A DNA stretch of 64,000 nt from NCBI RefSeq assembly GCF_964355755.1, contig NC_092676.1, positions 1,369,788-1,433,787 of the forward strand, given 5' to 3'. The notes under the pieces were generated by a model that was not told the origin of the DNA, did not search any database, and saw nothing but the letters and a program-made list of their open reading frames with translations. Positions 7,689 through 33,742 of the stretch are shown piece by piece. A program made the translations under genes and the position numbers. The stretch comes from Antedon mediterranea. Taxonomy: Eukaryota; Animalia; Echinodermata. The stretch's first letter is position 1, and each line of letters begins with the position of its first letter.

Positions 7689-8873
7689 TTAATCTGTCAC
7701 TTGCAAATATCCATCCTCATCCAGTTCAAATTCATCATATGCCTGGTTGGACATTCCATAGAGGGTGTTGTTGTGTTCTGTCTGTTGACGCACAGTGCTC
7801 TCCTCCTGGTTTATATTTTGTGTGCTTTGAGACTGCATTTGTTCGGAAGTTGTAAGTGGAGATCTCCTCCTTATACATCTGTACAACTCAATAAGAAATA
7901 AAATAAGAAAAGCAGAAAAAATACATGCAATTGCTACGATGAAGTGTTCTTCTCTTATCCAGTATATGTTTGAATCGGATTCGATATCATATTCAACTGT
8001 GGATCTGGCTTCTTTGGTAGTAATTGATGTGTCTGAAATCACTGTGCTTGGTGTATCAGTTGTTGTTGTGCTACCTTGGGAGGATGTATCTGGAGTTGTA
8101 ATTGGTGTGCTTGGAAACATTGTAGTTGGTGGTGTATTCCTAATAGAAGATATTTCAGTGGCACCAGTTGTTGTTGCTTCTGGTGATGTTGTAGAAGGCA
8201 TCTCAATTATAGAACATGATTTTGATATGCTTATCATTCCAGATAGACTAACATCACATGTAAGACCATAAGGCGCAATATCAGCTGGATTGTATGTGTA
8301 ATATAATGTACATACATTAGATTTTAAGCAGTTTGTTGTGGTTAGAGTGTTTCCGTTACTTCTCAACATCAATGTTTCGATATCGTCTGGAGGCATGTTG
8401 TATGAACATGATGCAATAGAACTAGTATCATTAATGTGTAAACTTGTGCATTTAGGTAATGACTGATAAATGTTCAAAGTAACTGTATTTATTATGCTAT
8501 TAATACTAAAAAATATTAACCTGCATTCATATGTTGAATTAAGATGCTTCCAGATATTAATATCATCAGGAATCTTGACCAAAAGACTATAGTCTGCACC
8601 TTCACCAGGGATTGAGTAATAACTTGACTGTAAACCAAGTCGACTTTCATCTATCATCTTTTCAGTACTGATGTAATCACTATGGACAACCCACCTTACA
8701 ACAGTTCCATCATTCATATGATTATGAGTACAGGGAAGAGATACATTCTGTCCAGGTGTGACCGTAATGACTTCTCCAAATACAAACAAAGAATGTTTAT
8801 CCACCAAGAGAATACTCCACAACAAAAAGATATATCTGCCCATTTCCAAACTGCTCAATGAAAATGTAAACAT
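7689..8873 (-). CDS. Ig-family receptor, short-tail class A (signal peptide, V-like Ig, Cys-rich second domain, S/T stalk, TM, tail ending LDEDGYLQV)
   Basis: 394-aa uninterrupted ORF; TPGQNVSLPC...VRW...YSL...TYEC Ig pattern; TM FIVAIACIFSAFLILFLI; paralogous to neighbouring ORFs. Confidence 0.9.
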   Translation of the reverse strand: MFTFSLSSLEMGRYIFLLWSILLVDKHSLFVFGEVITVTPGQNVSLPCTHNHMNDGTVVRWVVHSDYISTEKMIDESRLGLQSSYYSIPGEGADYSLLVKIPDDINIWKHLNSTYECRLIFFSINSIINTVTLNIYQSLPKCTSLHINDTSSIASCSYNMPPDDIETLMLRSNGNTLTTTNCLKSNVCTLYYTYNPADIAPYGLTCDVSLSGMISISKSCSIIEMPSTTSPEATTTGATEISSIRNTPPTTMFPSTPITTPDTSSQGSTTTTDTPSTVISDTSITTKEARSTVEYDIESDSNIYWIREEHFIVAIACIFSAFLILFLIELYRCIRRRSPLTTSEQMQSQSTQNINQEESTVRQQTEHNNTLYGMSNQAYDEFELDEDGYLQVTD

Positions 8874-9004
8874 TTGAATTCAGACTGCCAACTTCTCTGA
8901 CTGATTTCAGTTTTTTAAATGAGATTTTAGAATAAAAGTTGTGTCTCATTGATCCCAAAAGACAAATTCTTTACCCAATACTCAATAATTAAAAATAACC
9001 TCAA

Positions 9005-9147
9005 GGGGATTCCCAACAATTTGGTTCATTAATAATTCATTTTACTTTACAGTTCATTTGTAATAAATGTATAATAAAGAGTAATTGAAAAATCTTAGAT
9101 ATTTTATTTATTTAGGTTTGCTTCACCGATCAGGGCAATGAGGAAGT
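9005..9147. promoter_or_regulatory. Candidate NF-kB site (GGGGATTCCC, 9005-9014) and ETS site (GAGGAAGT, 9140-9147) upstream of the 7689-8873 gene
   Basis: Consensus matches; the ETS site recurs at the homologous position upstream of paralogues. Confidence 0.45.
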
Positions 9148-9379: not shown

Positions 9380-10270
9380 TTATCTTCCATTACATTGCAA
9401 AACATTCACTTCCAAATATCCATCCTCATCCAGTTTAAATTCATTTCCATCATCCTGTGTAGATGTCATGTTGGACATTCCATAGAGGTCATTGTTGTCT
9501 TCTGTTTGTTGGTGCACAATGCTCACTTGGTTTGTATTTTGTATGCTTTGAGAGTTTCTTTGTTCAGAAGTTGTAAATGGATGTCTCCTCCTTGTACATC
9601 TGTACAACTCAATAAGAAACAAAATAAGAAATGCAGAAGAAATACATGCAATTGCTGTGATGAAGTGTTGTTCTCTTCTTATCCAATATTTGTTTGAATC
9701 GGACTCAAGATCATTCTCTACTGTGGATCTGGCTTCATTGGTTGTAATAGGTGTTTTAGGAAACTCTGTGCTTGGTGTAATACCTTTAACATCAGTTGCT
9801 GTTGTTGTGATAGAATGTACTCCAGATGTGCTGCCTTGGAAATGTGTTGTAATTTGTGCAGACAATGTACTTTCTTGTGCAATTTGCAAAGTAACTGTAC
9901 TTAATACACTGTAACCACCACTCATAGATGTTAACCTGCATTCATATGTTACATTAATATATTTCCAAATATTAATATCATTAGGAATTATGATAAAAAG
10001 ACTATAGTCTGCACCTTCACCAGGGATTACGTAATATTCAGTAAGTAAGTAAAGTACATTTTCATGTAGTTCTTTTTCAGTACTGATATAATCATTATAG
10101 GCAAACCATCTAACATTTCCATCATTCATGTTTCCATTATTACAAGGAAGAGATATATTCTGTCCAGGTGTGCCTGTAATAGTTATCGTTTCTCCAAATA
10201 CAAACAAAGAATGTTTATCCCTCAAGCACACCAATAGAATACTCCACAACAAGATGGTATATCTGGCCAT
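9380..10270 (-). CDS. Ig-family receptor, class A, lacking the second (Cys-rich) domain; tail ends LDEDGYLEV
   Basis: ORF track starts at TTG 10276; first ATG is 10270 (MARYTILLWSILLV); V-like Ig joins the stalk directly. Confidence 0.88.
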   Translation of the reverse strand: MARYTILLWSILLVCLRDKHSLFVFGETITITGTPGQNISLPCNNGNMNDGNVRWFAYNDYISTEKELHENVLYLLTEYYVIPGEGADYSLFIIIPNDINIWKYINVTYECRLTSMSGGYSVLSTVTLQIAQESTLSAQITTHFQGSTSGVHSITTTATDVKGITPSTEFPKTPITTNEARSTVENDLESDSNKYWIRREQHFITAIACISSAFLILFLIELYRCTRRRHPFTTSEQRNSQSIQNTNQVSIVHQQTEDNNDLYGMSNMTSTQDDGNEFKLDEDGYLEVNVLQCNGR

Positions 10271-10368
10271 TTCCAAAGTTTAACTTCTCAAATTAATATC
10301 GACATTTGAATATTCATGGCTTCATATGGCTGTTCTTTCTGACTGTGGTATTCCTGCTTAGAATCAGA

Positions 10369-10482: not shown

Positions 10483-10723
10483 AAATATTACACTGTTAAA
10501 CATTGGGAAATTAATAAGTATACAAAGTCACAAAAGTTATTGTAATTTTATCTGTATAGGTGGTAATTATGTTGATTTTAATTTGAAAGCCAAAACAAAC
10601 ACACCATTAAAATGTATGTTCTATAAACTGTATAATTAACATTAGATAATTATTAAAAACAAATTAATGTATCGGCAATGATATCAATGAGTTTAAGAAA
10701 TAAATACTATCTTCAATTATGGA

Positions 10724-11457
10724 TAGATGACAAATTTCGTTTTTGTAAAAGCACAAGTTAACGGAGTACTTACTCGAACGTTTCAATCTCTATCAGAGAT
10801 CCTTCTCAACTGACTGCGGAGTGTTAATGCAGCTTGGTCATTCTTGACGTCATCTGTTGATGACGTCGTACGCCTCCGGTTGTAGGTTGGAGGTTGTGCG
10901 GGGCTCGGCCAGGTGATGTGTCTATCAAATCATTGTACAAATGCGAGAGTTCGTGGGCTCCAGTGTCCCGGTTCATGGTCTTCTCCTTATTTCTCCTTAT
11001 ATGTAATGATTCTCTAATCTGTTTGTCTTTGCGTTTAGGCTCTTTGGTTAAGATGGTAGCCTCCCAGTTTGGTACATGATTGTGTTTTATGACATGTTCT
11101 GTGATGGCAGATTTGTGTATGATCGAAGATGTGGATGTTCTGGAGGCCCTAGTCATTACTCCCCCCGTGTTTGTTGTAACATCTTTTTTGTGATCATTAA
11201 TTCGTGTTTGTAATGCCCTCCCTGTTTCCCCAATGTAAACTTGTGGACAGTAACCTCCAACCTACAACCGGAGGCGTACAACGTCATCAACAGATAACGT
11301 CAAGAATGACCAAGCTGCATTAACACTCCGCAGTCAGTTGAGAAGGATCTCTGATAGAGATCGAAACGTTCGAGTAAGTACTCCGTTAACTTGTGCTTTT
11401 ACAAAAACGAAATTTGTCATCTATACAAAATCGAAGCTAAATAAAATTCTTTCAAGA
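10724..11457 (-). mobile_element. 5'-truncated Penelope-like retroelement with inverted pLTR
   Basis: GIY-YIG remnant CPQVYIGETGRALQTRINDH...SAITEHVIKHNH...RESLHI...MNRDTG (10824-11249); ~170-bp inverted repeat (10724-10893 vs 11253-11424); 12-bp TSD ttcaattatgga (10712-10723, 11458-11469); empty site seen in the paralogue at ~17664. Confidence 0.92.
11338..11371 (+). ncRNA. Candidate atypical minimal hammerhead ribozyme in the Penelope pLTR
   Basis: TTGAGAA-G-[GATCTCT gat AGAGATC]-GAAACGTTC (U3/A8 variant core, 7-bp stem II); inverted copy at ~10777-10810; stem I is not convincing. Confidence 0.45.
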
Positions 11458-11462
11458 TTCAA

Positions 11463-14400
11463 TTATGGAATTGGCAAAACAGTAACTTCCAAATATCCAT
11501 CCTTATCCAGTTTAAATTCATTTCCATCATCCTGTGTAGATGTCATGTTGGACATTCCATAGAGGTCATTGTTGTCTTCTGTTTGTTGGTGCACAATGCT
11601 CACTTGGTTTGTATTTTGTATGCTTTGAGAGTTTCTTTGTTCAGAAGTTGTAAATGGATGTCTCATCCTTGTACATCTGTACAACTCAATAAGAAATAAA
11701 ATAAGAACAGCAGAAGAAATACATGCAATTGCTATGATGAAGTGTTCTCTTCTTATCCAATATTTGCTTGAATCAGATTCAAGATCATTTTCTATTGTTC
11801 TAGCTTTGTTGGTTGTAATAGGTGTGTTTGAAAACACTGTGCTTGGTGTTACAGGAGATGAGTTTAAATTTTCTGCTGTTGTGATTGAATGTGCTCCAGA
11901 TGTTCTTTCTTGGAAATATGTTTTTGTAATTGGTGAGCTTGGAGACATTGTTCTTCCTTGGAAAGACTGGTCCATTTCTGTTCCTTCTGGTGATGTTGTA
12001 AAAGGCATCTCATTTGTATAAAATGATTTTGATGTGCTTATTGTTCCAGATAGACTAACAACACATATGAGACCATTTTGCGCAAAGTCAGCTGGGTTGT
12101 ATGTGTAATATAATGTACATACATCAGATGATAAGCAGTCTATTGTGGTTAGATTCATTCCATTGCTTATCCTCATCAATGATTCAATATCTGAAGGAAT
12201 GTTGTATGAACATGATGCGATAGAACTAATATCATTAATGTGTAAACTTGTGCATTTAGGTAATGACTGATAAATGTGCAAAGTAACTGTACTTAATACA
12301 CTGTAACCACTCATTGATTGTAACCTGCATTCATATTCATATTAAGATATTTCCAGATATTAATATCATCAGGAATCTTGATAAAAAGACTATAGTCTGC
12401 ACCTTCACCAGGGATTGCATAATATCTTGCCAATAAGCCAACTGTGCTTTCATTTATTATCCTTCCAGTACTGATGTAAACTGAATGGCTAAACCACCTT
12501 ACAACGTTTCCATCATTCATGTTATTTAGACTAGGCTATGAATGAGGTAGGTGCCACCCGGAGAGGTAGAAATTCTCATATAACTTTTCTAGACCAGTTT
12601 TTTCTGGGGAATCCAAATATATTGGGTAAACGGGCTGTAACCTGAGAACTTTCGCGTGAGGGCGCTTTTTTCAAAATGGCTGCCAGTTACAGTAGACTAT
12701 GATATCTTGGCAACCACTGGTCATAGAGAGTTGATTTTGGTGTCAAATTGTTTGGAATGTACATGTTCCTATTTGATGTAATAGAAAATTTTGTCAGAAA
12801 ATGGCCGGAAATACCTCTATTGACCTTTGACCCAATATCTAACAGATATCATATCTCCGTAACTACTGGACACAGAAAGTTGTAATTGGTGTCAAACTCT
12901 CCAGAATATAGATGTTTATATTCAAACTAATAGAACATTATCTGTAAAAATGACCGGAAATAACGTTACTGACCTTTGACCCAAAATGCAAGACATTTCT
13001 CCTATCTGATCACGCTAATCCTGTCAATTAATTCATTTTGTGCCAATTGGAGGTTGACATTCTCATATTATTTTCTTGACCAGTTTTTCATGTGCAATCC
13101 GAGTAATATGAGATAAATAAGCCATAACAAGGCCAAGAATTTAATTCTTTTACTACATACATGCTTCCCTTTAGTGTTTCAGTCTGTATGTCGTGTATTA
13201 ATCTTCAAGATCGCTCACATCACTGCAATCTGAAAAGTCTTCATATTCATTATGTGTAAACAGTTCCTGGACATCAGTGGGCATCACTGTCTCAATCCAT
13301 TTAGGCTCCATTTGTTCGTTCCATCCATTGTGTGTACTGTTGTTGACAAAATAATTGACGTCTGCTGATTGCCATTCTTTAGTAATGAAGTTTGCTCTAA
13401 GTATATGAAACTCAAGGGTCTGCTGACATAGTGGCAGTAATGATATATCTGTAATCTTGTTGTGTCTGGAAAACTTTCTGTTGAAGATATCATATCTTGC
13501 TTGATTTACACTTTTCCCCTTCACTCCATACAATGGTGAAACATACTCTTCAAGTTCCTCATACAACTCTTTTGATGGAACATCTGACACTCCAAGGTTG
13601 CAGAATGTGTCTGCGCTTTTGTTAAATCAATGTCACTCAATTTCAGTACATTTCGGTATTTCCCAGTGTTTGTATCAATAATTACCCTCTGCCCATCATC
13701 TATGAAATGAGATAGTGAAATGACTGGAATGTCAAAGTCTCCAGAATGGGAACGAATTATTGCTACGCCTTGATTGTTATTTGTTAAAGCATGCTTTGCA
13801 TGCAGGATGACTTTCATGTCGGCTTCTTCTTGGCTACTATTAAGCTCTGGAACCAATACAACATCTCAGTTAGTAACGTAGATGCATTCTTTGTACGATG
13901 AAAAGTAGATAACATCACTCCTCATATCTGTTAGAATGCTTTCTTTCTTTGACACTAGTACACAGCGAATAAGCTCAATCAATCTGGTCTTGTTTTTGCC
14001 GTTGGCAAGGAAATTGTTAAAATCACGGGGCAACTTTGATATTTTTGAGCTTACAATTACTTTTGGTGCAATACCGCGTCTGTTTCTCGCAGTGCTCGAC
14101 CAGGATCCATAACATCATCTCACTTTATTTTCAAATAGTGGGAAGAAACTCGAAATCAAGGAAAATGGGAAAGTAAGAGTAATATAAGCTAATCGGGATG
14201 TTTTAGGAAAGCTTCTTGCCACCTCAACAAAGCATGGTAGAATAATTGACTTTAAGAAAGCCTTTGAGTATCCACTTACCCCTGTCCCGCTAAGCCTTGC
14301 TAATACAGATGGGACAAGACGAACAACTCAGAAAAGTGTCCTAATGGAAATTCTCATCGAAATTTCAACAGATGTTATAGATCCTGGTCGGGCACTGCCA

Positions 14401-16390
14401 GCAAAGGCTACTGTCATTGCCTATGTTGTTGACTTGATGGCATTAATCAGAACATTTACATCTTACCCTGATGCGTACGAGGATCTTGTAGCAAAGGTTT
14501 TCAACAGCATCCCTAAAGGATACAAGCGAGTTGATATTGTTACCGATGCATACCTGCCAAAAAGCATTAAGTCTGTTGAGAGAAACATACGCGGTATTGC
14601 ACCAAAAGTAATTGTAAGCTCAACAATATCAAAGTTGGCCCGTGATTTCAACAATTTCCTTGCCAACGGCGAGAACAAGACCAGATTGATTGAGCTTATT
14701 CGCTGTGTACTAGTGTCAAAGAAAGAAAGCATTCTAACAGATATGAGGAGTGATGTTATCTACTTTTCATCGTACAAAGAATACATCTACGTTACTAACT
14801 GAGATGTTGTATTGGTTCCGGAGCTTAATAGTAGCCGGAAGAAGAAGCCTACACGAAAGTCATCCTGCATGCAAAGCATGCTTTAACAAATAACAATCAA
14901 GGCGTAGCAATAATTCGTTCCCATTCTGGAGACATTGATATTCCAGTCATTGCACTATCTCATTTCATAGATGATGGGCAGAGGGTAATTATTGATACAA
15001 ACACTGGGAAATACCGAAAGGTACTGAAATTGAGTGGCATTGATTTAACAAAAGCGCAGAAATCATCCCTTATTGGATTCCATGCTTTCACAGGTAACGA
15101 TTATAACTCCGCTTTCTTTCGGAAAGGAAAACGTACCTGCTGGAAGCTTCTGGAATCAAAAGCAAAATTTGTTGACACATTCTGCAACCTTGGAGTGTCA
15201 GATCAAAAGAGTTGTATGAGGAATTTTAAGAGTATGTTTCACTATTGTATGGAGTGAAGGGGAAAAGTGTAAATCAAGCAAGATATGATATCTTCAACAG
15301 AAAGTTTTCCAGACACAACAAGATTACAGATATATAATTACTGCCACTATGTCAGCAGACCCTTGAGTTTCATATACTTAGAGCACACTTCATTACTAAA
15401 GAATGGCAATCAGCAGATGTCAATGATTTTGTCAACAACAGTACACACAATGGATGGAACGAACAAATGGAGCCTAAATGGATTGAGACAGTGATTCTCA
15501 CTGATGTCCAGGAACTGTTTACACATAATGAATATGAAGACTTTTCAGATTGCAGTGATGTGAGCGATCTTGAAGATTAATACACGACATACAGTCTGAA
15601 ACACTAAAGGGAAGCATGTACAGTATATAGTAAAAGAATTAAATTATTGGCCTTGTTATGGCTTATTTATCTCATATATTCGGATTGCACATGAAAAACT
15701 GGTCCAGAAAATAATATGAGAATGTCAACCTCCAATTGGCACAAAATGAATTAATTGACAAAATTAACGTGATCAGATGGGAGAAATTTCTTGCATTTTG
15801 GGTCAAAGGTCAGTAACGTTATTTCCGGTCATTTTTACAGATAATGTTCTATTAGTCTGAATATAAACATCTATATTCTGGAGAGTTTGACACCAATTAC
15901 AACTTTCTGTGTCGAGTAGTTACGGAGATATGATATCTGTTAGATATTGGGTCAAAGGTCAATAGAGGTATTTCCGGCCATTTTCTGACAAAATGTTCTA
16001 TTACATCAAATAGGAACATGTACATTCCGAATAATTTGACACCAAAATCACCTCTCTATGACCAGTGGTTGCCAAGATATCATAGTCTATTGTAACTGGC
16101 AGCCATTTTGAAAAAAGCGCCCTCACGCGAAAGTTCTCAGGTTACAGCTCGTTTACCCAATATATTTGGATTCCCCAGAAAAAACTGGTCTAGAAAAGTC
16201 ATATGAGAATTTCTACCTCTCCGGGTGGCACCTACCTCATTCATAGCCTAGTCTAATTATTACAAGGAAAAGATACATTCTGTCCAGGTGTGGCTGTAAT
16301 ACTCATCGTTTCTCCAAATACAAATAACGATTGTTTATCCATATAGCACACCAATAGAATAATCCGCAACAAGATGGTATATCTGGCCAT
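11463..16390 (-). pseudogene. Class A Ig-family receptor disrupted by a 3.7-kb transposon and a 1-nt frameshift
   Basis: ATG at 16390 (MARYTILLRIILLVCYMDKQSLFVFGETMSITATPGQNVSFPC); sequence resumes after the insertion as NMNDGNVVRWFSHS; -1 frameshift near 12335-12340 relative to paralogues; 3' part is ORF 11463-12314. Confidence 0.9.
12527..16255. mobile_element. Foldback derivative of an Academ-like (XPG/PIN-domain) DNA transposon
   Basis: Termini TAGACTAGGCTATG...CATAGCCTAGTCTA; 3-bp TSD ATT; ~1.56-kb inverted arms (12527-14088 vs ~14580-16255); decayed coding motifs VVDLMALI, DIVTDAY, EEADMKVILHA, SGDxDI, FHAFTGND..SAF.RKGK. Confidence 0.85.
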
Positions 16391-17668: not shown

Positions 17669-18820
17669 TTATGGAATTGGCAAAACAGTAACTTCCAAAT
17701 ATCCATCCTTATCCAGTTTAAATTCATTTCCATCATCCTGTGTAGATGTCATGTTGGACATTCCATAGAGGTCATTGTTGTCTTCTGTTTGTTGGTGCAC
17801 AATGCTCACTTGGTTTGTATTTTGTATGCTTTGAGAGTTTCTTTGTTCAGAAGTTGTAAATGGATGTCTCATCCTTGTACATCTGTACAACTCAATAAGA
17901 AATAAAATAAGAAAAGCAGAAGAAATACATGCAATTGCTATGATGAAGTGTTGTTCTCTTTTTATCCAATATTTATTTGGATCCGAGTCAAGATCATTCT
18001 CCACTGTGGATCTGGCTTCATTGGTTGTAATCGATGTGCTTGGTTTAATACCTGTAGTAGCAGTTCCTTGAAAATATGCATCTGGGGTTGTAATTGGTGG
18101 AGACACTGTACTTCCTTGGAAAGAATGGTCCATTTCTGTTCCTTCTGGTGATGTTGGAATCTCATTTATAGAACATGATTCTGATACGCTTATCATTCCA
18201 GATTCACTAACATTACAAGTAAGTCCATGTGGAACAACATCTGTTGGGTTGTATGTGTAATATAATGTACATACATTAGATGATAAGCAGTTTATTGTTG
18301 TTAGAGTCCTTCCATTGCTTCTCCATATCAATGATTCCATATCTGAAGGGTTGTTGTAGGAACATGATGCAACAGAAGTGGTATCATTAATTTGTAAACT
18401 TGTACATTTAGGTAATGACTGATAAATGTGCAAAGTAAATGTACTTAATACACTGTAGTAACCACCACTCATTGATGTTAACCTGCATTCATATGTTACA
18501 TTAAGATATTTCCAGATATTAATATCATCAGGAATCATGATAAAAAGACTATAGTCTGCACCTTCACCAGGGATTGCAAAATGAGTTGCATGTAAGCCAA
18601 GTGTGCTTTCATTTATCATCTTTTCAGTACTGATGTAAGCACTCTGAACAAACCACCTTACAACAATTCCATCATTCATGTGATCATAATTACAAGGAAG
18701 AGATACATTCTGTCCAGGTGTGCCTGTAATAGTTATCGTTTCTCCAAATACAAATAATGAGTGTTTATCCCATAAGCACACCAATAGAATACTCCACAAC
18801 AAGATTGTATATCTGGCCAT
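17669..18820 (-). CDS. Ig-family receptor, class A, two extracellular domains; tail ends LDKDGYLEVTVLPIP
   Basis: Uninterrupted ORF; ATG at 18820 (track uses upstream TTG); same architecture as 7689-8873. Confidence 0.9.
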   Translation of the reverse strand: MARYTILLWSILLVCLWDKHSLFVFGETITITGTPGQNVSLPCNYDHMNDGIVVRWFVQSAYISTEKMINESTLGLHATHFAIPGEGADYSLFIMIPDDINIWKYLNVTYECRLTSMSGGYYSVLSTFTLHIYQSLPKCTSLQINDTTSVASCSYNNPSDMESLIWRSNGRTLTTINCLSSNVCTLYYTYNPTDVVPHGLTCNVSESGMISVSESCSINEIPTSPEGTEMDHSFQGSTVSPPITTPDAYFQGTATTGIKPSTSITTNEARSTVENDLDSDPNKYWIKREQHFIIAIACISSAFLILFLIELYRCTRMRHPFTTSEQRNSQSIQNTNQVSIVHQQTEDNNDLYGMSNMTSTQDDGNEFKLDKDGYLEVTVLPIP

Positions 18821-19114
18821 TTTCAAAGTTTAACTTTTCAACTTAGTCGACATGAATATTCATTGATCTATAATGACTGTTCTTTCTTACTACTGTATGA
18901 TATTCTTGCTTAGAATCAGATTTTATAATAAAAGTACTGTAGTGCCTTATTGATCTCAAAAAAATAAATATTGTGTAGGCCTACCTCTTAACCCATCCAT
19001 GCATATCATAACCCCAGTCTGAATAAACAATTACCTGGTTATGTTCATAGTAAACATAAGCTGGAATTTTAGTTCCTTTTTTGTCCAATTCATTCTGATC
19101 TAACTTGGCATTAT

Positions 19115-20449
19115 TTATATTGAATCATCAAGTGATTGATAGGCCTCATTTTCATGGTATACAATGCCATCATTTGTTCCATCTTCATTGCTATTCTCTG
19201 ATGCATCCACCTTCAATGCACTTTGTTCAAGAACTTGTTCTCCTGTTTTATCTGCTCTATTTGTACAATCTCCATCAACAATAACATTCTTAATTTCCTT
19301 CTTTTGCTCATCAGCTGATTCATAAATCTGATTTTCCTCCATGACACTCTCCTTACTATTTTCCAGCATCTCCTGATTTTCTCCTTTTGTTGTTGGATTT
19401 ACTTTCAAGTCAACCTCAACATATTCATGATCATCTGGTGGTGCTGATTTAAATGAAAGGTTTTGTTTATATTCAGAGCGTCTTCTTACATAATAAATGA
19501 TGAAAATAATCAGAAGTAGAATGATGACAAAAGCTACTGACATGATGGCTATTAGATATATTGGGACACTGTCATTAGGTTCTTCTGGTTTATTTACAGT
19601 TAACATTTGTTTGTTTCTTGTTGTACTATCATTAGATTCTGTGGAAGTGGTTGTGATAGTACTTTCTAATGTTGAGAAGTATTTTGTCAAAGTTGTTTTT
19701 TCAATAAAAGGTTCAACAGATGCGCTTCCTTCAAAAGGCGAGTCTGTGTCTGTTCCTTCTGTTGATCCAGGGATCTCATTTATAGAACATGATTTTGTTG
19801 TGCTTATCGTTCCAGATTCACTAACATTACAAGTGAGACCATGTGGTACAATGTCAGCTGGGTTGTATGTGTAATTTAATGTACATACATTAGATGATGA
19901 ACAACTTTCTGTGGTTAGAGTGTTTCCATTGCTTCTCCATATCAATGATTCCATATCTGAAGTGTTGTTGTAGGAACAGGATGCGATAGAACTAGAATCA
20001 TTAATTTGTAAACTTGTGCATTTAGGTAATGACTTATAAATATGTAAAGTAACTGTATTTAATTTGCTATAACTACCTGTAATAAATGTAAATCCGCATT
20101 CATATGTTACATTAAGATATTTCCAGATATTAATATCATCAGGAATCGTGATAAAAAGACTATAGTCTGCACCTTCACCAGAGATTGCATAATAACTTGT
20201 CAGAAAGCCAAGCACAGTACTATCTAGTATTCTGTCACTACTGATGTAATCACCATGGGCATGCCACCTAACACTTCCATCCATCAGTTGATCATTAGTA
20301 GTACAAGGAAGAGATACATTCTGTCCAGGTGTGGCTGTAATAACTTCTCCAAATAAAAATAATGATTGTTTATCCATCAAGCACATTAATAGAATAATCC
20401 GCAACAAGATGGTATATCTGGCCATTTCCAACTTCTTTAATTTCGTCAT
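19115..20449 (-). CDS. Ig-family receptor, long-tail class B, C-terminally truncated (terminal ITIM-like motif lost)
   Basis: 444-aa ORF; TM IYLIAIMSVAFVIILLLIIFIIYYV; tail HEYVEV, IYESAD, AYQSL; 1-nt deletion gives an early stop, and remnant codons KKGTKIPAYVYYE continue to ~19045. Confidence 0.85.
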   Translation of the reverse strand: MTKLKKLEMARYTILLRIILLMCLMDKQSLFLFGEVITATPGQNVSLPCTTNDQLMDGSVRWHAHGDYISSDRILDSTVLGFLTSYYAISGEGADYSLFITIPDDINIWKYLNVTYECGFTFITGSYSKLNTVTLHIYKSLPKCTSLQINDSSSIASCSYNNTSDMESLIWRSNGNTLTTESCSSSNVCTLNYTYNPADIVPHGLTCNVSESGTISTTKSCSINEIPGSTEGTDTDSPFEGSASVEPFIEKTTLTKYFSTLESTITTTSTESNDSTTRNKQMLTVNKPEEPNDSVPIYLIAIMSVAFVIILLLIIFIIYYVRRRSEYKQNLSFKSAPPDDHEYVEVDLKVNPTTKGENQEMLENSKESVMEENQIYESADEQKKEIKNVIVDGDCTNRADKTGEQVLEQSALKVDASENSNEDGTNDGIVYHENEAYQSLDDSI

Positions 20450-21477: not shown

Positions 21478-22821
21478 CTATTCAAGTTCTAACACTTCAT
21501 AGTGAACATAAGCTGGAATTTTAGTTCCTTTTTTGTCCGATTCCTTCTGATCTAATTTAGCATTATTTATATTGATGTCATCAAGTGATTCATAGGCTTC
21601 TTTTTCATGGTATACAATGCCATCATTTGTTCCATCTTCATTGCTATTCTCTAATGCACTCTTCTTGAATGCCTCACTTTGTTCAAGAACTTGTTCTCCA
21701 GTTTTGTATATTCTCTTTGTATACTCTCCATCAACAATAACATTCTTAATTTCCTTTTTTTGCTTCTTTGCAACATTACCATCATCATTAATCTGTTTCC
21801 CATTCATGTCAGCTGATTCATAAATCCAGTTTTCCTCCATGACACTCTCTTTACTATTTTCCAGTATCTCTTGATTTTCACCGTTCTTTTGCTTATTTGC
21901 AACATTTTGTTTCCCATTCATGTCAGCTGATTGATAAATCTGATTTTCCTCCATGACACTCTCCTTACTATTTTCCAGCATCTCCTGATTTTCTCCTTTT
22001 GTTGTTGGATTTACTTTCAAGTCAACCTCAACATATTCATGATCATCTGGAGTTGCTGATTTGAATGATGGGTTTTGTTTATATTCAGAGCGTCTTCTTA
22101 CATAATAAATGATGAAAATAATCAGAAATAGAATTACGACACAAGATACTGACATAATGACTATTAGATGTATTGACTGATTAGAATTGGTTGGGTTGCT
22201 TACAGTTGAATGTATTTGTTTGTTTCTGTCCCTTGGTTCTGTGGTGCCTGTGCTTTTGGTACTTTCTAATGTTGTTTTTGTTGTATTTTTGTCTCTGTGT
22301 TCTGCAGTTTTTGTTTTAAATGAGACTGAGCCTGTTGTTTTTTCAATAAAAGATACACTAGTTGTGCTTCCTTGGGATGACAGGTCTGTCTCTGTTTCTG
22401 TGGATGTTGTAGAAGGCATATTATTTGTAGGTAATGACAGATAAATCTTCAAAATAAATTTGTTTAGTATATCATAATTGCCACTCCATGTTAACCTGCA
22501 TTCGTATGTTTCATTAAAATGTTTCCAGACATTAATATCATCTGGAATCTTGATTAAAAGACTATAATTATGACCAGTACCAGGGATTGCAAAATAACTT
22601 GTCTGTAACCCAAGTGTAGTATTAATAACTGTTCTTCCAGTAGTGATGTAAGCTTGACGGGTAAACCACCTAACAATTCCAACATTCACACAAGTAAGCA
22701 ATACATTCTGTCCAGGTGTGGCTGTAATAAAAGTCTCTGTTTCTCCAAATACAAATAAAGAATGTTTATGCCATAAATATACCAAGAGAATCATAAACCA
22801 CAACAAGATATGTTTGCCCAT
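21478..22821 (-). CDS. Ig-family receptor, class B, lacking the second domain; tail ends VHYEVL
   Basis: 447-aa ORF; signal peptide, V-like Ig, stalk, TM; duplicated ENQE..ESVMEEN.IY.SAD block. Confidence 0.9.
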   Translation of the reverse strand: MGKHILLWFMILLVYLWHKHSLFVFGETETFITATPGQNVLLTCVNVGIVRWFTRQAYITTGRTVINTTLGLQTSYFAIPGTGHNYSLLIKIPDDINVWKHFNETYECRLTWSGNYDILNKFILKIYLSLPTNNMPSTTSTETETDLSSQGSTTSVSFIEKTTGSVSFKTKTAEHRDKNTTKTTLESTKSTGTTEPRDRNKQIHSTVSNPTNSNQSIHLIVIMSVSCVVILFLIIFIIYYVRRRSEYKQNPSFKSATPDDHEYVEVDLKVNPTTKGENQEMLENSKESVMEENQIYQSADMNGKQNVANKQKNGENQEILENSKESVMEENWIYESADMNGKQINDDGNVAKKQKKEIKNVIVDGEYTKRIYKTGEQVLEQSEAFKKSALENSNEDGTNDGIVYHEKEAYESLDDININNAKLDQKESDKKGTKIPAYVHYEVLELE

Positions 22822-22937
22822 TTTAAAAAAAAAATTAACATGTGGGAATTTGAATAATTTTCTTTCCTTTCTGTCCTATTTTTTCTTCTAGATTTTTCTT
22901 GGTCCTTGCATTTGCCACTGTTCTTGCATTGTCATTC

Positions 22938-23175
22938 CTGTAGAATATATTTATAACGACTTGTTAGCATATTCTATTGTTTCGGTATTAAATAATTTAT
23001 AAAGCATCTCAAATATTTATTCCATAAAATACTTGTCCATACATGAATGGGCCTAATTTAATTCTTTTTGTAGCAATAAAATTTTAGAAAGGTAACTAGT
23101 GAAGTTTAAAATATCTAAACAATTACACAATTATGATTACAGTAAATATAGTAATTGACAGAAAGCATCACTTAC
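22938..23175 (-). other. Predicted 5'-UTR intron of the 21478-22821 gene (homologues 29516-30635 and 33859-35976)
   Basis: Conserved GAG|GTAAGT donor and TTCTACAG|G acceptor at homologous positions upstream of three class B genes. Confidence 0.55.
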
Positions 23176-23394
23176 CTCCATTAGGATAGCAACAAACTAC
23201 ATACTAAGTTCACTTCCTTATAGCCTGGTGTCACTGTCAATTTAGTTCACTGTTAATAAATAGTGTTACGTTGTATACCCCTGGACGTTCTTTGTACATA
23301 TTCAGACAATATACATTATTTGATTCTAATGTTCTATTTATGATCAATGATGCAAACAAATTATGACTGCTGCATAATAAGTTTTAAAAATTGG

Positions 23395-23635
23395 GGGTCA
23401 CCTTTGATCCTGAAGAGCTATAATAGATTCAAAATAGGCATGATTTTGACAATATTGTGTAACTTTTTCAACTAAAACGCGCACAATTTTGTAATTCGTA
23501 TGGCGTGATTTAAAGTAGAAATAGTTTTTAAAAATTTCAAATTACTAGGAAAAGCTGGAAAGTTATAATTCAAGAGAAAAAAACCTGTTTTTCATACACC
23601 GTACGCATAAAAAGTTTGCACGCGTGGGAATTTTC
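23395..23635 (-). mobile_element. Fragment related to the Helentron-like element at 47226-48830 (duplicated at ~30840-31093)
   Basis: Reverse complement aligns by eye with ~47686-47910 (aaaattcccacgcgtgc...ttccagc.tttt.ctagtaattt). Confidence 0.6.
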
Positions 23636-23990
23636 CTAATATCCATCCTCATCCAGTTTAAATTCATTGCTATCATCGTGTGTAGATGTCATGTTGGACA
23701 TTCCATAGCGGTCAGTGTTTGTTGACGCACAGTGTTCATGTTGTGTAGATTCTGTTTACATCAAGGGCTTTTTCATACATTATAAATGATGAAAATAACC
23801 AGAAATAGAATTATGACAGATGAAAAGATACCAAGACAATAGCTATTAGATATATTACAATACATACTGTTTATTGACTGGTTAGAGTTAGTTTTTTTGC
23901 ATTTTCAGTTGTAATTTATTTTTTGCTGCCTTTTGTTCTATCATCGTATTCTGTTGGAGTGGTCATGTACTTTGTAATGTTGATATTAAT
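23636..23990 (-). pseudogene. Ig-less receptor remnant: class B-like stalk/TM fused to a class A tail (YGMSNMTSTHDDSNEFKLDEDGY)
   Basis: Nucleotide similarity to class A tails (atatccatcctcatccagtttaaattca) and class B TM (aaatgatgaaaataa.cagaaatagaat); stops and indels. Confidence 0.75.
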
Positions 23991-24576: not shown

Positions 24577-26034
24577 CTATTCACGTTCTAACACTTCATA
24601 GTGATAATAAGTTGGATTTTTAGTTCCTTTTTTGTCTGATTCCTTCAGATCTAACTTATCATTATTTACATTGATGTCTTCAAGAGATTCATAGGCTTCA
24701 TTTTCATGGTACACAATGCCATCATTTGTTCCACCTTCATTTCTGTTCTCTGATGCACTCTTCTTCAATGCCTCACTTTGTTCAAGAACTTGTTCTCCTG
24801 TTTTATCTGCTCTATTTGTATAATCTCCATCAACAATAACATTCTTAATTTCCTTCTTTTGCTCAGTAATCTGTTTCCCATTTATGTCAGCTGATTCATA
24901 AATCCAGTTTTCCTCCATGACACTCTCCACATTATTTTTCATCATCTCCTGATTTTCTCCTTTTGTTGTTGGATTTACTTTCAAGTCAACTTCAACATAT
25001 TCATGATCATCTGGTGGTGCTGATTTGAATGATGGGTTTTGTTTATTTTGAGACTGAGAGTGTCTTCGTACATAATAAATGATGAAAATAATCAGAAGTA
25101 GAATGATGACAAAAGCTACTGCTGACATGATGGCTATTAGATATATTGGGACACTGTCATTAGGTTCTTCTGGTTTATGTACAGTTAACATTTGTTTGTT
25201 TCTTGTTGTACTATCATTAGATTCTGTGGAAGTGGTTGTGATAGTACTTTCTAATGTTGAGAAGTATTTTGTCAAAGTTGTTTTTTCAATAAAAGGTTCA
25301 ACAGATGCGCTTCCTTCAAAAGGCGAGTCTGTGTCTGTTCCTTCTGTTGATCCAGGGATCTCATTTATAGAACATGATTTTGTTGTGCTTATCGTTCCAG
25401 ATTCACTAACATTACAAGTGAGACCATGTGGTACAATGTCAGCTGGGTTGTATGTGTAATTTAATGTACATACATTAGATGATGAACAACTTTCTGTGGT
25501 TAGAGTCCTTCCATTGCTTCTCCATATCAATGATTCCATATCTGAAGTGTTGTTGTAGGAACAGGATGCGATAGAACTAGTATCATTAATTTGTAAACTT
25601 GTGCATTTAGGTAATGACTTATAAATATGTAAAGTAACTGTATTTAATTTGCTATAACTACCTGTAATAGATGTTAATCCGCATTCATATGTTTCATTAA
25701 AATATTTCCAGATATTAATATCATCAGGAATCGTGATAAAAAGACTATAGTCTGCACCTTCACCAGGGATTGCATAATAACTTGTCTGGAAACCAAGCAT
25801 AGTACTATCTAGTATTCTTTCACTACTGATGTAATCACCATGGGCATGCCACCTAACACTTCCATCCATCAGTTGATCATTAGTAGTACAAGGAAGAGAT
25901 ACATTCTGTCCAGGTGTGGCTGTAATAACTTCTCCAAATAAAAATAATGATTGTTTATCCATCAAGCACACCAATAGAATAATCCGCAACAAGATGGTAT
26001 ATCTTGCCATTTCCAACTTCTTTAATGTCGACAT
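24577..26034 (-). CDS. Ig-family receptor, class B, two extracellular domains; tail ends TYYHYEVL
   Basis: 485-aa ORF; near-duplicate of 19115-20449 with an intact C-terminus. Confidence 0.9.
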   Translation of the reverse strand: MSTLKKLEMARYTILLRIILLVCLMDKQSLFLFGEVITATPGQNVSLPCTTNDQLMDGSVRWHAHGDYISSERILDSTMLGFQTSYYAIPGEGADYSLFITIPDDINIWKYFNETYECGLTSITGSYSKLNTVTLHIYKSLPKCTSLQINDTSSIASCSYNNTSDMESLIWRSNGRTLTTESCSSSNVCTLNYTYNPADIVPHGLTCNVSESGTISTTKSCSINEIPGSTEGTDTDSPFEGSASVEPFIEKTTLTKYFSTLESTITTTSTESNDSTTRNKQMLTVHKPEEPNDSVPIYLIAIMSAVAFVIILLLIIFIIYYVRRHSQSQNKQNPSFKSAPPDDHEYVEVDLKVNPTTKGENQEMMKNNVESVMEENWIYESADINGKQITEQKKEIKNVIVDGDYTNRADKTGEQVLEQSEALKKSASENRNEGGTNDGIVYHENEAYESLEDINVNNDKLDLKESDKKGTKNPTYYHYEVLERE

Positions 26035-28069: not shown

Positions 28070-29413
28070 TTATTCTCGTTCTAAAACTTCATAGTGAACA
28101 TAAGCTGGGATTTTAGTTCCTTTTTCGTCAGATTTCTTCTGATCTAATTTAGCATTATTTATATTGATGTCATCAAGTGATTCATAGGCTTCATTTTCAT
28201 GGTACACAATGCCATCATTTGTTCCATCTTCATTGCTCTTCTCTGATGCACCCTTCTTCAATGCACTTTGTTCAAGAACTTGTTCTCTTGTTTTATCTGC
28301 TCTCTTTGTGAAGTCTCCATCACCAATAACACACCTAATTTCTTTCTTTTGCTTATTTGCAACATTTTGTTTCCCATTCATGTCAGCTGATTGATAAATC
28401 TGATTTTCCTCTATGACACTCTCCTTACTATTTTTCATCATCTCATTATTTTCTCCTTTTGTTGTAGGATTTACTTTCAAGTCAACCTCAACGTATTCAT
28501 GATCATCTGGTGGTGCTGATTTGAATGATGGGTTTTGTTTATATTGAGGGCGTCTTCGTGCGTAATAAATTATGAAAATAATCAGAAATAGAATGATGAT
28601 GAAAGCTATCGACATAATGACTATTATATGTATAGAAATATTGTCACCTGATTGATTAGAGTCTTCGGTTGATTTTATTTGTTTGATGTTTGTGAATTCT
28701 GTGCTTAGAGAAGATGTTTCAATGTTTGATGTGGCTGCTGGCAAGTAAGTCTCTAGTCCTTCTGGTGATGTTGTAAAAGACATCTCATTTATAGAACATG
28801 ATTTTGTTGTACTTATCATTCCAGACTTACTAACAGCACATGTGAGACCATGTGGCACAATGTCAGTTTGGTTGTATGTGTAGTTTAATGTACATACATT
28901 AGATTTTAAGCAGTCTATTGTGATTAGAGTGTTTCCATTACTTCGCCATATCAATGATTCCATATTTGAAGTGGTGTTGTAGGAACATGATGCGATAGAA
29001 GTTGTAGCATTAATGTGTACACTTGTGCATACAGGTAATGGCTGATAAATGTGTAAAGTAACTGTATTTAATATGCTATAATCATCACTGCATTCATAGT
29101 CTCCATCAATGTATGACCAGATATTGATATCATCAGGAATCTTGATAAAAAGACTATAGTTGGAACCTTTACCAGGGATTGTGTAATAAGGTGACAGTAA
29201 GCCAAGTGTGCTTTCATTTATCATCCTTTCAGCACTTAGGTAACCTGAATGGCTAAACCACCTTACAACATTTCCATCATTCATGTTATCCTTATTACAA
29301 GGAAGAGATACATTCTGTCCAGGTGTTACTGTAATGGTTGTACTTATTTCTCCAAATACAAATAAAGAATGTTTATCCATCAAGTACACTAAGAGAACCA
29401 TACACCAAAACAT
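28070..29413 (-). CDS. Ig-family receptor, class B, two extracellular domains; tail ends VHYEVL
   Basis: ORF track starts at GTG 29434; first ATG is 29413 (MFWCMVLLVYL); shortened FG loop (YECSDDYSIL). Confidence 0.9.
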   Translation of the reverse strand: MFWCMVLLVYLMDKHSLFVFGEISTTITVTPGQNVSLPCNKDNMNDGNVVRWFSHSGYLSAERMINESTLGLLSPYYTIPGKGSNYSLFIKIPDDINIWSYIDGDYECSDDYSILNTVTLHIYQPLPVCTSVHINATTSIASCSYNTTSNMESLIWRSNGNTLITIDCLKSNVCTLNYTYNQTDIVPHGLTCAVSKSGMISTTKSCSINEMSFTTSPEGLETYLPAATSNIETSSLSTEFTNIKQIKSTEDSNQSGDNISIHIIVIMSIAFIIILFLIIFIIYYARRRPQYKQNPSFKSAPPDDHEYVEVDLKVNPTTKGENNEMMKNSKESVIEENQIYQSADMNGKQNVANKQKKEIRCVIGDGDFTKRADKTREQVLEQSALKKGASEKSNEDGTNDGIVYHENEAYESLDDININNAKLDQKKSDEKGTKIPAYVHYEVLERE

Positions 29414-30629: not shown

Positions 30630-32120
30630 ACTTACCTCCATTAGAGAATACAACAAACTACATACTAAGTTCACTTCCTTATTGCCTGGTGTCACTGTCA
30701 CTTTAGTGTTTTGTTATGTTGTATACCCCTGGGTGTTCTTTGTACATATTCAGACAATATACACTATTTGATTCTAATGTTCTATTTATGATCAATGATG
30801 CAAACAAATTATGACTGCTTGCATAATAAGTTTTAAAAATTGGGGGTCACCTTTGATCCTGAAGAGCTATAATAGATTCAAAATAGGCATGATTTTGACA
30901 ATATTGTGTAACTTTTTCAACTAAAACGTGCACAATTTTCTAATTCAACATGTTCGTATGACGTGATTTAAAGTACAAATAGTTTTTAAAAATTTCAAAT
31001 TACTAGGAAAAGCTGGAAAGATATAATTCAAAAGAAAAAAACATGTCTTTCATACACCGTACGCATAAAAAGTTTGCACGCGTGGGAATTTTCCTAATAT
31101 CCATCCTCATCCAGTTTAAATTCATTGCTATCATCGTGTGTAGATGTCATGTTGGACATTCCATAGCGGTCAGTGTTGTTGTTGTTGTCTTCTGTTTGTT
31201 GACGCACAGTGTTCATGTTGTGTAGATTCTGTTTACATCAAGGGCTTTTTTATACATGATAAATGATGAAAATAACCAGAAATAGAATTATGACAGAAAT
31301 GAGAAAATATCAAGACAATAGCTATACAATTCTGTTTATTGACTGGTTTAGAGAATAGGTTTTTTGCATTTTCAGTTGTAATTTATTTGTTGCTGCCTTT
31401 TGTTCTATCATCGTATTCTGTTGGAGTGGTCATGATACTTTGTAATGTTGATATTAATAATGTTGTTATACTTTTGCCTGCATATTATGCAGTTCTTTTA
31501 ATTGAAGTTAATTATTTAGTTCATTTGAATAGAAGAATGTACTTTACTTTGCAGATTTTCTGTTGAGCACAAAATTAGTTTCCAATCAAAAATGGTAAAA
31601 GAATTATGAAAGTTTAGAACACAGTTTCACGTTACAGCTCAATGAGGAAGTAAACATCATTGTGCAATACAGATTTTTATTTTCAAATTCAAGTAAAGTT
31701 TCACTAATTTAAATTTTGTTTCTATTGTAAGACCATTAAAGCAGTAAAGATGGGCCCAAAAGTGGTTTCCTTCCTATAACGTTGGTTATATGTCAGATTT
31801 TAATGAGTGACTTATAATTTCTCCTTGTCTTAGGATAATTAAAAAAAGGTTATTTAATTTCTGCAAAAGCATTTTTGATTAATTTAAGCTCCGTCTGGTC
31901 TAAAATTGTTAATAGTTCAGTAAAGTTTTATTATTCTAGTTCTATTAGCACTTAAAAAGTTATTTTATTCTCCGATTCTAACAAGTAAAAGTTTAAAGTT
32001 TTGTTATTCTCATTTCATTTCATAAACATTTATTTATATTAATTAATTCTGGTTCTGTTAACACTTGCAAAGTTATTTTATTCTCATTCTAACAATTCAA
32101 GTAAAAGTTTCAAGTTTTGC
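30630..32120. repeat. Segmental duplicate of ~23170-24577
   Basis: Long colinear near-identity including the donor site, Helentron fragment, receptor remnant and ETS/C-EBP module. Confidence 0.85.
31094..31460 (-). pseudogene. Second copy of the Ig-less chimeric receptor remnant
   Basis: LISTLQSIMTTPTEYDDRTKGSNK* resembles the class B stalk FSTLESTITTTSTESNDSTTRNKQ; followed by a decayed TM and a class A tail ending LDEDGY*. Confidence 0.75.
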
Positions 32121-33742
32121 TATTCTCGTTCCAACACTTCATAATGAACATAAGCTGGAATTTTAGTTCCTTTTTTGCCCGATTCCTTCTGATCTAACTT
32201 AGCATTATTTATATTGATGTCATTAAGAGATTCATATGCTTCATTTTCATGGTATACAATGATATCATTTGTTCCATCTTCATTGCTATTCTCTGATGCA
32301 CCCTTCTTCTTAATTTCCATTTTTTGCTTCTTTGCAACATTACCATCATCATTAATCTGTTTCCCATTCATGTCAGCTGATTGATAAATCTGATTTTCCT
32401 CCATAACACTCTCTTTACTATTTTCCAGTATCTCTTGATTTTCACCGTTCTTTTGCTTATTTGCATCATTTTGTTTCCCATTCATGTCAGCTGATTCATA
32501 AATCCAGTTTTCTTCCATGACACTCTCCTTACTATTTTCTAGTATCTCTTGATTTTTTCCTTTTGTTGTAGAATTTACTTTAAAGTCAACCTCAACGTAT
32601 TCGTGATCATCTTGTGGTGCTGATTTGAATGAAGGATTTTGTTTATATTGAGAGCATCTTCTTACAAAATAAATGATGAAAATAATCAGAAGTAGAATGA
32701 TGACAAAGGCTACTGACATGATGGCTATTGGATGTATTGGAAAATCTGGATTTTCAGTTGAATTTATTTGTTCATTTGTTGCAAATTCTGTGGAAGTTGT
32801 AGGCATGATACTGGTTTGATTTACTGGTAACTCTGTAATTGTACCTTTGTCAATGTACTCTGTAGTAGAGAAAGATGTTTCAACTTTAGTCGATTGGTCT
32901 GGATTTTCTGTTGTGGATACGGTTTCTTTGGTTGTAATTGGTGAGGTTTGAAACATTGTAGTTGGTGGTGTATTTCTTATAGAAGATGTTTCAGAGTTTG
33001 AAGTGGTTTCAGTAAAAGATACACTAGTTGTGCTTCTTGGGAAAGACCGGTCCATTTTTGTTCCACCTGTTGATGTTGCAAAAGACATCTCATTTATAGA
33101 ACATAATTTTGATACGCTTATCATTCCAGATACATTAACAGCACATGTGATACCATGTGGTACAATGTCAGCTGGGTTGTATGTGTAAGTTAATGTACAT
33201 ACATTAGATGATAAGCAGTTTATTGTGTTTAGATTCATTCCATTACTTCGCCATATCAGTGATTCCATTTCTGAAGGAATGTTGTAGGAACATGATGCGA
33301 TAGAAGTGGTATCATTAATGTGTAAACTTGTGCATTTTGGTAATGACTGATAAATGTTCAAAGTAACTGTACTTAATATGCTATAATCACCACTCATAGG
33401 TGTTAACCTGCATTCATAGGTTTCTTCTAAAAATTCCCAGACATCAATGTTATCAGGAACCTTGATAAAAAGACTATAGTCTGCATCTTCACCACCAGGA
33501 ATTGCAAAATAAGGTGCCTGTAAGCCAAGTGAGCTTTCATCTATCATCTTGTCAGCACTGATGTAAACTTCACGGGTAAACCACCTTACAACATTTGCAT
33601 CATTCATGTTACCATTAGTACAAGGTAGAGATACATTCTGTCCAGATGTGGCTGTAATGGTTATCGTTTCTCCAAGCACAAACAAATTTGTATCCATCAA
33701 GTTCACAAAAAGAACCATACACAAGAAACTTGTTTTTCTCAT
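32120..33742 (-). CDS. Ig-family receptor, class B, long stalk; tail ends VHYEVL
   Basis: ORF track starts at GTG 33763; first ATG is 33742 (MRKTSFLCMVLFVNL); both extracellular domains, TM and duplicated IY.SAD block present. Confidence 0.9.
   Translation of the reverse strand: MRKTSFLCMVLFVNLMDTNLFVLGETITITATSGQNVSLPCTNGNMNDANVVRWFTREVYISADKMIDESSLGLQAPYFAIPGGEDADYSLFIKVPDNIDVWEFLEETYECRLTPMSGDYSILSTVTLNIYQSLPKCTSLHINDTTSIASCSYNIPSEMESLIWRSNGMNLNTINCLSSNVCTLTYTYNPADIVPHGITCAVNVSGMISVSKLCSINEMSFATSTGGTKMDRSFPRSTTSVSFTETTSNSETSSIRNTPPTTMFQTSPITTKETVSTTENPDQSTKVETSFSTTEYIDKGTITELPVNQTSIMPTTSTEFATNEQINSTENPDFPIHPIAIMSVAFVIILLLIIFIIYFVRRCSQYKQNPSFKSAPQDDHEYVEVDFKVNSTTKGKNQEILENSKESVMEENWIYESADMNGKQNDANKQKNGENQEILENSKESVMEENQIYQSADMNGKQINDDGNVAKKQKMEIKKKGASENSNEDGTNDIIVYHENEAYESLNDININNAKLDQKESGKKGTKIPAYVHYEVLERE

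Follow-up and report, generated by a model that had tools for sequence, protein, structure and literature searches.

Whether the tandem immunoglobulin (Ig)-like receptor genes at positions 7689-33742 of a 64,000-nucleotide stretch of the feather star Antedon mediterranea genome (contig NC_092676.1, positions 1,369,788 to 1,433,787; hereafter the window) are paired activating and inhibitory receptors is the question that this locus raises. KIR, LILR, SIRP and NITR are paired receptors of vertebrates, and the arrangement that defines such receptors, in which neighbouring genes share similar ectodomains but end in different tails, is found here. Six-frame translation and tblastn recovered 11 related units, all on the minus strand: eight open reading frames (ORFs), one split pseudogene (A3) and two remnants. 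The tandem, same-strand layout proposed in a first-pass annotation of the sequence therefore held, but its count of seven ORFs had to be raised to eight. All eight are single open frames running from a hydrophobic N-terminus, from which alone the signal peptides were inferred, to the cytoplasmic tail, with no intron required, and they comprise three genes of class A and five of class B. A search of the window with the family hidden Markov model detected no additional member, although an Ig gene near 41 kb scored weakly.

The strongest evidence in this analysis is the evolutionary pattern of tails and ectodomains. We compared the tails with those of a second crinoid, Anneissia japonica, from which three B tails were included. 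The A tails scored z 3.4-6.4 against the Anneissia A tail and at most 1.1 against B tails, whereas the B tails scored z 6.7-14 against Anneissia B tails and at most 0.5 against the Anneissia A tail. The tails are homologous by class across both species, and the A and B tails showed no consistent similarity to each other (z -2 to 3 in eight pairs). Ectodomains follow species: their tree splits by species with support of 100/100, and trees joining the A-type ectodomains of both species were rejected by the approximately unbiased (AU) test (p-AU 9e-9, 4e-60 and 2e-50), with A3 and the Anneissia protein P0015 left out and the ectodomain shared by the Anneissia isoforms P0004 and P0005 unlabelled. 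Within the window, domain 1 is 81% identical in DNA between the classes, compared with 84% within A and 79% within B. The initial observation that related ectodomains are joined to two different tail classes was borne out: the tails are unrelated and the ectodomains are shared. Both tail classes also exist in Anneissia. The genes of the cluster are mosaics: the transmembrane (TM) segment and tail of A3 and A4 are 100% identical in DNA while domain 2 is only 84% identical, and the signal peptides and 5' flanks of B1 and B3 are A-like.

Domain 1 evolves faster than the other parts of the receptors. Under model M0, omega (dN/dS) was 0.75 for domain 1, 0.54 for domain 2 and 0.39 for the B tail, and the pairwise mean dN/dS values were 0.273/0.281, 0.130/0.228 and 0.089/0.205 in the same order. 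Codon site models revealed positive selection on domain 1 (M2a vs M1a, p 0.003; M8 vs M8a, p 0.0014), placing about 5% of sites at omega of about 5.5 and two sites at a posterior above 0.9, and found no significant positive selection in domain 2 (p 0.11) or the B tails (p 0.29). The signal was stable on gap-free columns, without loops and on a star tree. None of 42 simulations (21 null, 21 null with conversion) reached the observed likelihood ratio, the alternative-model fits to simulated data being slightly more constrained than the fit to the real data. Species-wise ectodomains, class-wise tails and selection on domain 1 together are the evolutionary signature of paired receptors, with the concerted-ectodomain pattern resting on two species.

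Domain 1 had been annotated as V-like, and structure modelling agrees. C17, W30 and C86, in keeping with the B- and F-strand cysteines and C-strand tryptophan of the Ig beta-sandwich, are invariant in all 12 aligned sequences, and the Pfam V-set match reached only E 0.03, below the cut-off. An AlphaFold model of A4 domain 1, with a predicted local distance difference test (pLDDT) score of about 70-85 in the strands, matched best the V-set domain of TREM2 (Z 10.5, root-mean-square deviation 2.4, 94 residues aligned). The next matches, NEGR1, Dpr1, T-cell receptor (TCR) V, NITR10, CD80 and Neph1, lay within 1 Z unit, those of NITR10, Dpr and TCR V being tied at Z of about 9.7-9.9. Domain 1 is accordingly predicted to have a V-type Ig fold. 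Because immune and adhesion molecules tie among these matches, the fold does not separate an immune from an adhesion role. A sequence search of the PDB gave only weak antibody light-chain matches (best E 0.0012), and Pfam matches to TMEM154, RIFIN and similar families were rejected as reflecting TM and stalk composition. The optional second domain was confirmed as a segment of about 90 residues with six cysteines that is missing in A2 and B2. Its top named Atlas matches are C1/C2-set clusters (0.92-0.93), which are a lead only, the fold models being poor, and a fold search with a low-confidence model (pLDDT 44) returned no match at E<=0.001.

The class A tail carries a conserved terminal motif. 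The annotated LD(E/K)DGYL(E/Q)V was recovered as D(E/K)DGYL(E/Q)V in all four window A tails, followed by 2-8 more residues, and the Anneissia class A tail carries DNGGYLEV. Shuffling the A tails produced [DE]x[DE]GYxx[LIV] with a probability of 0.0002-0.0005. Class A tails also hold an NxLY site, and their TM segment has two cysteines nearby and, in all six A-type sequences including Anneissia, a glutamate at the cytoplasmic edge. The lectins Dectin-1 and CLEC-2 are type II proteins with an N-terminal tail, whereas class A is a type I Ig receptor with a C-terminal motif. These C-type lectins signal through a hemITAM, the hemi form of the immunoreceptor tyrosine-based activation motif, whose DEDG-Y core is common to class A, but they have Leu at Y+3 where class A has Val. 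The hemITAM consensus is given as DEDGYxxL (PMC11484026) or defined as [DE]3xYxxL (bioRxiv 2024.10.16.618699), and the ability of Dectin-1, unlike DNGR-1, to activate depends on its Gly at -1 (PMC12669754). The exact DEDGY core is carried by A1 and A2 (two of five A tails), and Gly at -1 is present in five of five, Anneissia included.

The class B tail is more varied at its end. It had been described as usually ending in VHYEVL, a sequence that fits the immunoreceptor tyrosine-based inhibition motif (ITIM). This was true of three of the five window tails (B2, B4 and B5) but not of B1, which is frameshifted, or of B3, which has YHYEVL; in Anneissia, VHY(E/D)VL was found in P0006, and no tail has more than one ITIM. 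Shuffled B tails contained an ITIM anywhere in 20-31% of cases and within the last 12 residues in about 1%. Two other tyrosine motifs are kept more widely, E(N/K)EAY(E/Q)SL in nine of nine class B proteins of both species and ENxIYxSAD in eight of nine (nine of nine counting the near form DNCIYQSAD). A full ITAM (immunoreceptor tyrosine-based activation motif) was found in none of the nine window tails.

A profile search of 1.84 billion proteins gave 16 matches, made up of two window genes, five Anneissia proteins and nine others. The nine (eight named vertebrate multi-Ig proteins and one unnamed) were rejected as short generic stretches, as were two Xiphophorus matches, and a grouping of B4 with 53-residue proteins proved to be a clustering artefact among unrelated proteins. 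Close relatives, with both tail classes, were thus confined to Anneissia japonica, and within the databases searched the family appears to be crinoid-restricted. The Anneissia gene LOC117112836 is annotated with two isoforms, X1 and X2 (P0004 and P0005), which share 222 residues and then continue into either a B or an A stalk, TM segment and tail. Genuine alternative splicing would account for this, or else the gene model joins what are in fact neighbouring genes. P0002, encoded on a different Anneissia scaffold, has its own ectodomain and an A stalk nearly identical to that of LOC117112836. A more distant relative is the Anneissia V-C2-I protein P0020 (LOC117115573; domain 1 E 4e-10, HHalign probability 97%). 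Echinoderm V-C2-I Ig proteins of this kind resemble the family in their homologous domain 1, single-pass topology and tyrosine-rich tail, but P0020 has a third, I-set-like domain and a tail with the terminal motif of neither class. Such single-pass proteins are likely the parent group of the family.

Read data were used to ask whether the genes are transcribed and how variable they are. Among the runs listed, none was recorded as RNA; we guessed run X6, from one sample, to be RNA and took run X1 as DNA from its flat depth. Of 30 depth bins, nine overlapping repeats were dropped and three partial ones were left unclassed, and 12 genic and six intergenic bins were used. Median depth in genic versus intergenic bins was 23.6 versus 2.5 in X6 (about 10-fold) and 24.2 versus 18.6 in X1 (p 0.005). 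This contig depth, from one sample of unrecorded tissue whose RNA nature is a guess, weakly suggests that both classes are transcribed. X6 contigs covered most of A1 at a depth of 18-35 and were about 98-99% identical to the window, differing by 16 letters in 1045, 9 in 423 and 2 in 275, the last in the 5' half of domain 1; with identity this high in one other sample, no extreme allelic polymorphism is visible at A1. No joint between a B ectodomain and an A tail was among the X6 joints listed, in contigs that drop rare forms.

With a probability of roughly 0.55, we read the cluster as encoding paired non-self sensors in which class A activates and ITIM-bearing class B inhibits; the signalling steps, the ligand and the cell type are what we infer. 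By architecture, each receptor is a type I membrane protein that combines a predicted V-type Ig tip with either of the two unrelated tyrosine tails. A variable ligand bound by domain 1 would cluster them, and Src-type kinases may then phosphorylate the tails. The class A motif, as D(E/K)DG-pY-LxV, could recruit a Syk/Shark-type kinase as in hemITAM receptors, perhaps aided by the TM-edge glutamate. In class B, ENxIYxSAD and E(N/K)EAYxSL would supply several tyrosines on which Src homology 2 (SH2) and phosphotyrosine-binding (PTB) proteins assemble, as on a scaffold, and the terminal VHpY(E/D)VL, where kept, may recruit SHP/SHIP. Recombination between tandem copies would keep the tips of both classes alike, and selection would diversify them. 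A more specific proposal, of which we are doubtful, is that this is an independent crinoid paired system, in which an activator of hemITAM type that needs no partner chain is set against an inhibitor with an ITIM, derived perhaps from one alternatively spliced gene like LOC117112836 and later hard-wired into tail-swapping single-exon genes.

Several results weigh against the paired-sensor reading. The strict hemITAM, with YxxL, occurs in none of five A tails, and because all five have Val at +3 the activating reading of class A is a near-match only; moreover, A3 and A4 have Lys in the acidic run, and the Anneissia A tail reads DNGGY. The assignment of class B as inhibitory, made from motifs, is shaky. 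With an ITIM in four of nine B proteins (only three of five in the window and one of four in Anneissia), it covers under half of them, and the acidic E(N/K)EAYxSL, kept in all nine, looks more like an activating YxxL. ENxIYxSAD is a generic motif, since an unrelated neighbouring gene, T2, holds ENTIYESAD. Among the fold matches, V-set domains of adhesion molecules (NEGR1, Dpr/DIP, Neph1) tie with immune ones. Only a single Anneissia ectodomain labelled as A-type entered the AU test. Within the window, a clade of class A ectodomains was not rejected (p-AU 0.08-0.38), and pairwise homoplasy index (PHI) tests for recombination were not significant (p 0.066, 0.47 and 0.25). The grouping by species could also stem from separate expansions of one two-tailed ancestor; if the two-tail locus LOC117112836 is real, separate expansion would explain the trees without much gene conversion. 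Finally, the codon site models were a custom implementation applied to eight paralogues.

Alternatively, the products may be immune-type receptors that do not form an on/off pair, both classes mainly activating or scaffolding (A by way of DxDGYLxV, B by way of E(N/K)EAYxSL and its NxxY sites) and the terminal ITIM serving only as a feedback brake in some B proteins. We consider this unlikely, although the ITIM is absent from five of nine B proteins, all nine of which retain the two other tyrosine motifs, the Anneissia B tails hold an A-motif-like DD(L/F)GYIE, and P0003 fits a loose ITAM pattern. VHY(E/D)VL is nevertheless kept C-terminally in both species (B2, B4, B5 and P0006), B1 lost it through a frameshift, and where the Anneissia models end may depend on annotation. 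A non-immune recognition or adhesion family, working in gametes, neural wiring or skeletogenic fusion with tails that do not oppose each other but address separate cytoskeletal or growth adaptors, is also improbable in our estimation. It gains from the ties of NEGR1, IgLON5, Dpr/DIP, Neph1, Kirrel3 and CAR with immune receptors in the fold search and from the link to ordinary V-C2-I Ig proteins (P0020, HHalign 97%; the 41-kb gene, E 1.4e-4), and positive selection acts on gamete-recognition proteins as well. However, the tails include both DEDGY and, at the C-terminus, VxYxxL, and birth-and-death with pseudogenes, tail swapping and two tails on homogenised tips typify paired receptors of the immune system and not molecules for wiring or fusion. 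The vertebrate CD300 genes are a case of this kind (PMC12447643).

Clustered atypical V-set receptors with tyrosine motifs are also the layout of the Hydractinia Alr and Botryllus FcoR loci, and the family might form an allorecognition locus of the Alr1/Alr2 type, made of hyper-polymorphic homophilic self markers. Seven of nine changed A1 codons in X6 were non-synonymous, among the best 40 supported rows, yet the near-identity of the A1 contigs of X6 (about 98-99%) to the window speaks against hyper-polymorphism, and feather stars are solitary, not colonial, animals; we regard this explanation as very unlikely.

The paired-sensor reading invites comparison with known systems. Botryllus FcoR genes lie in clusters and encode type I V-Ig receptors whose tails carry an ITIM, a hemITAM or a bare YxxI/L/V, the tail motif being switched by allele or splicing (PMC12065747; bioRxiv 2024.10.16.618699). 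They are thus invertebrate clustered V-Ig receptors with alternative tails, comparable to Anneissia LOC117112836 with both tails, but as there described they have a V-sushi-C2-C2 architecture, many exons and a partner gene, FF. The crinoid receptors instead combine a V domain, an optional six-cysteine domain and a mucin stalk in one ORF, and their two tails differ as entire, unrelated modules, not by a swapped motif. Pfam gave no sushi match for the crinoid ectodomain, which lacks the FcoR architecture; no FcoR was among the named matches of the family profile search; and no tail-less partner gene was recognised within the cluster, the 41-kb Ig gene not having been examined for this. Hydractinia Alr genes form a tandem atypical V-set receptor family with pseudogenes, domain shuffling and tyrosine tails including ITAM and ITIM (bioRxiv 2022.03.04.482883), to this extent like the crinoid family. 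According to the same source, however, each Alr domain, spacer and TM segment lies on its own exon, most domains have an Fn3-like fold and full ITAMs occur, whereas the crinoid coding region is one ORF in eight of eight genes and a full ITAM is missing from all nine window tails. By architecture, the family belongs to neither FcoR nor Alr.

Among vertebrate systems, CD300A/C shows concerted ectodomain evolution, a TM glutamate in the activating member CD300C and pseudogenisation (PMC12447643). Like the crinoid genes, this pair has ectodomains alike within a lineage, a long ITIM tail versus a short tail, and a TM glutamate in the short form. TREM2 and NITR V domains were likewise among the best, tied fold matches, but vertebrate paired receptors have no close sequence homology to the crinoid family. 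Their activating members mostly have no tail motif and use DAP12 or FcR-gamma, whereas class A has its own tyrosine motif, and the position of its glutamate at the cytoplasmic edge of the TM segment also differs from theirs. A literature search by titles and abstract openings, with subscription journals mostly outside its scope, found no publication describing the family, and the accessible part of a review of the invertebrate Ig superfamily mentions no echinoderm case (PMC11999971). The first-pass annotation proposed an undescribed paired cluster in an invertebrate. The family does seem undescribed, but its kind is not new, since clusters of Ig receptors with ITIM or hemITAM tails are known in Botryllus and Hydractinia. 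To judge from its sequence, the locus holds an undescribed crinoid family that resembles a known kind of system and may share its function. It stands apart in its single-exon genes, in two complete, unrelated tails that both species retain, and in carrying a hemITAM-like motif at the C-terminus of a type I receptor.

The individual genes, all on the minus strand, are arranged as follows. A1 (7689..8843, 384 aa) has a signal peptide, V-Ig domain, six-cysteine domain, serine/threonine-rich stalk, TM segment with edge glutamate and tail DEDGYLQV; A2 (9380..10270, 296 aa) ends in DEDGYLEV and A4 (17669..18820, 383 aa), the intact gene used for the fold models, in DKDGYLEV. The pseudogene A3 consists of a 3' part (11463..12526) with a frameshift near 12340 and the tail DKDGYLEV, and a 5' part (16256..16390) with a B1/B3-like signal peptide and the beginning of domain 1. 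The annotated split of A3 was confirmed, as it is broken by a 3.7-kb insertion as well as by the frameshift. Class B begins with B1 (19115..20425, 436 aa from its ATG, with a second in-frame ATG at 20449), in which a frameshift near the end removes the terminal ITIM region and leaves an out-of-frame remainder (19044-19124) reading VYYEHN. B3 (24577..26010, 477 aa) is a recent duplicate of B1 and ends in YYHYEVL, which is not a consensus ITIM. B2 (21478..22821), B4 (28070..29413), both of 447 aa, and B5 (32120..33742, 540 aa) have the terminal ITIM VHYEVL, and the ENxIYxSAD segment is duplicated in B5. Two broken remnants (23633..23983 and 31091..31451) are chimeric, their stalk and TM segment being of B type and their tail end of A type, reading DEDGY and then a stop in the first; both contain stops, and the second lies within a 1.46-kb block 88% identical to the first. 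The order of the ORFs agrees with the separate A and B blocks described earlier, but because these chimeric remnants lie inside the class B block the separation is less clean than was stated. An origin of the remnants as alternative A exons that have decayed would agree with where they lie, behind B3 and B5, but not with their B-type TM segment.

The insertion splitting A3 (12526..16256, 3.7 kb) is near-palindromic and high-copy, with arms 96% alike over 1091 + 484 bp. It is a fold-back element with inverted arms around a spacer of about 485 bp and an apparent 4-bp ATAA target duplication, and it carries broken frames of a protein that matches no Pfam family. In one X1 contig, position 12526 continues into A4-like sequence, which hints weakly at a copy without the interruption. 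The 3' flank of A3 contains a high-copy fragment (10708-11439) whose short ends are inverted and which matches GIY-YIG weakly (E 0.06), possibly Penelope-like, beyond which the flank is 98% identical to that of A4. Two types of 5' flank were found, and the type does not track tail class. B2, B4 and B5 each have, about 110 bp upstream, a pyrimidine-rich CTACAG that resembles the splice acceptor of a 5' untranslated region intron, and about 90 bp upstream of A2-A4, B1 and B3 lies a common TATAAAA-containing block, which is degenerate in A1. Deep contigs with other letters at 18400-18650 (runs X1, X5 and X8) suggest more family copies outside the window. Runs X5 and X8, from organism B, have zero cover over 22568-23231 (the 5' part of B2), a gap that was not used as evidence.

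Three neighbouring genes, also on the minus strand, encode membrane proteins in single ORFs. The first (245-1501, 418 aa) has a short ectodomain, CRIRC after its TM segment, the acidic tyrosine motif DDDSELYCEM repeated about 10 times, and DENDYLEPV at its end; no Pfam family reached the cut-off, and we take it to resemble a LAT-type transmembrane adaptor. T2 (2995-5241, 748 aa) is a type I protein without an Ig domain, with a mucin stalk, a long tail of D/N-rich repeats and many acidic tyrosines, among them the one in ENTIYESAD. The 41-kb Ig gene (40977-42272) encodes V, C2-like and I-like domains, a TM segment and a short tail, and is weakly related to domain 1 of the family (E 1.4e-4 within the window) and to Anneissia P0020.

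Balanced pairs of activating and inhibitory receptors are a core design of vertebrate innate immunity, and the invertebrate precedents that we found are two colonial animals, Botryllus and Hydractinia, in which they serve allorecognition. The short single-exon genes make the crinoid tails directly testable, and the selected sites point to a ligand-binding surface. If the paired-sensor reading is true, its presence in a solitary echinoderm would show that an ancient Syk/SHP-type kit has given rise to this design more than once, and beyond colony fusion. If the system is moreover independent, it would be the first in echinoderms and would offer a snapshot of the origin of paired receptors.

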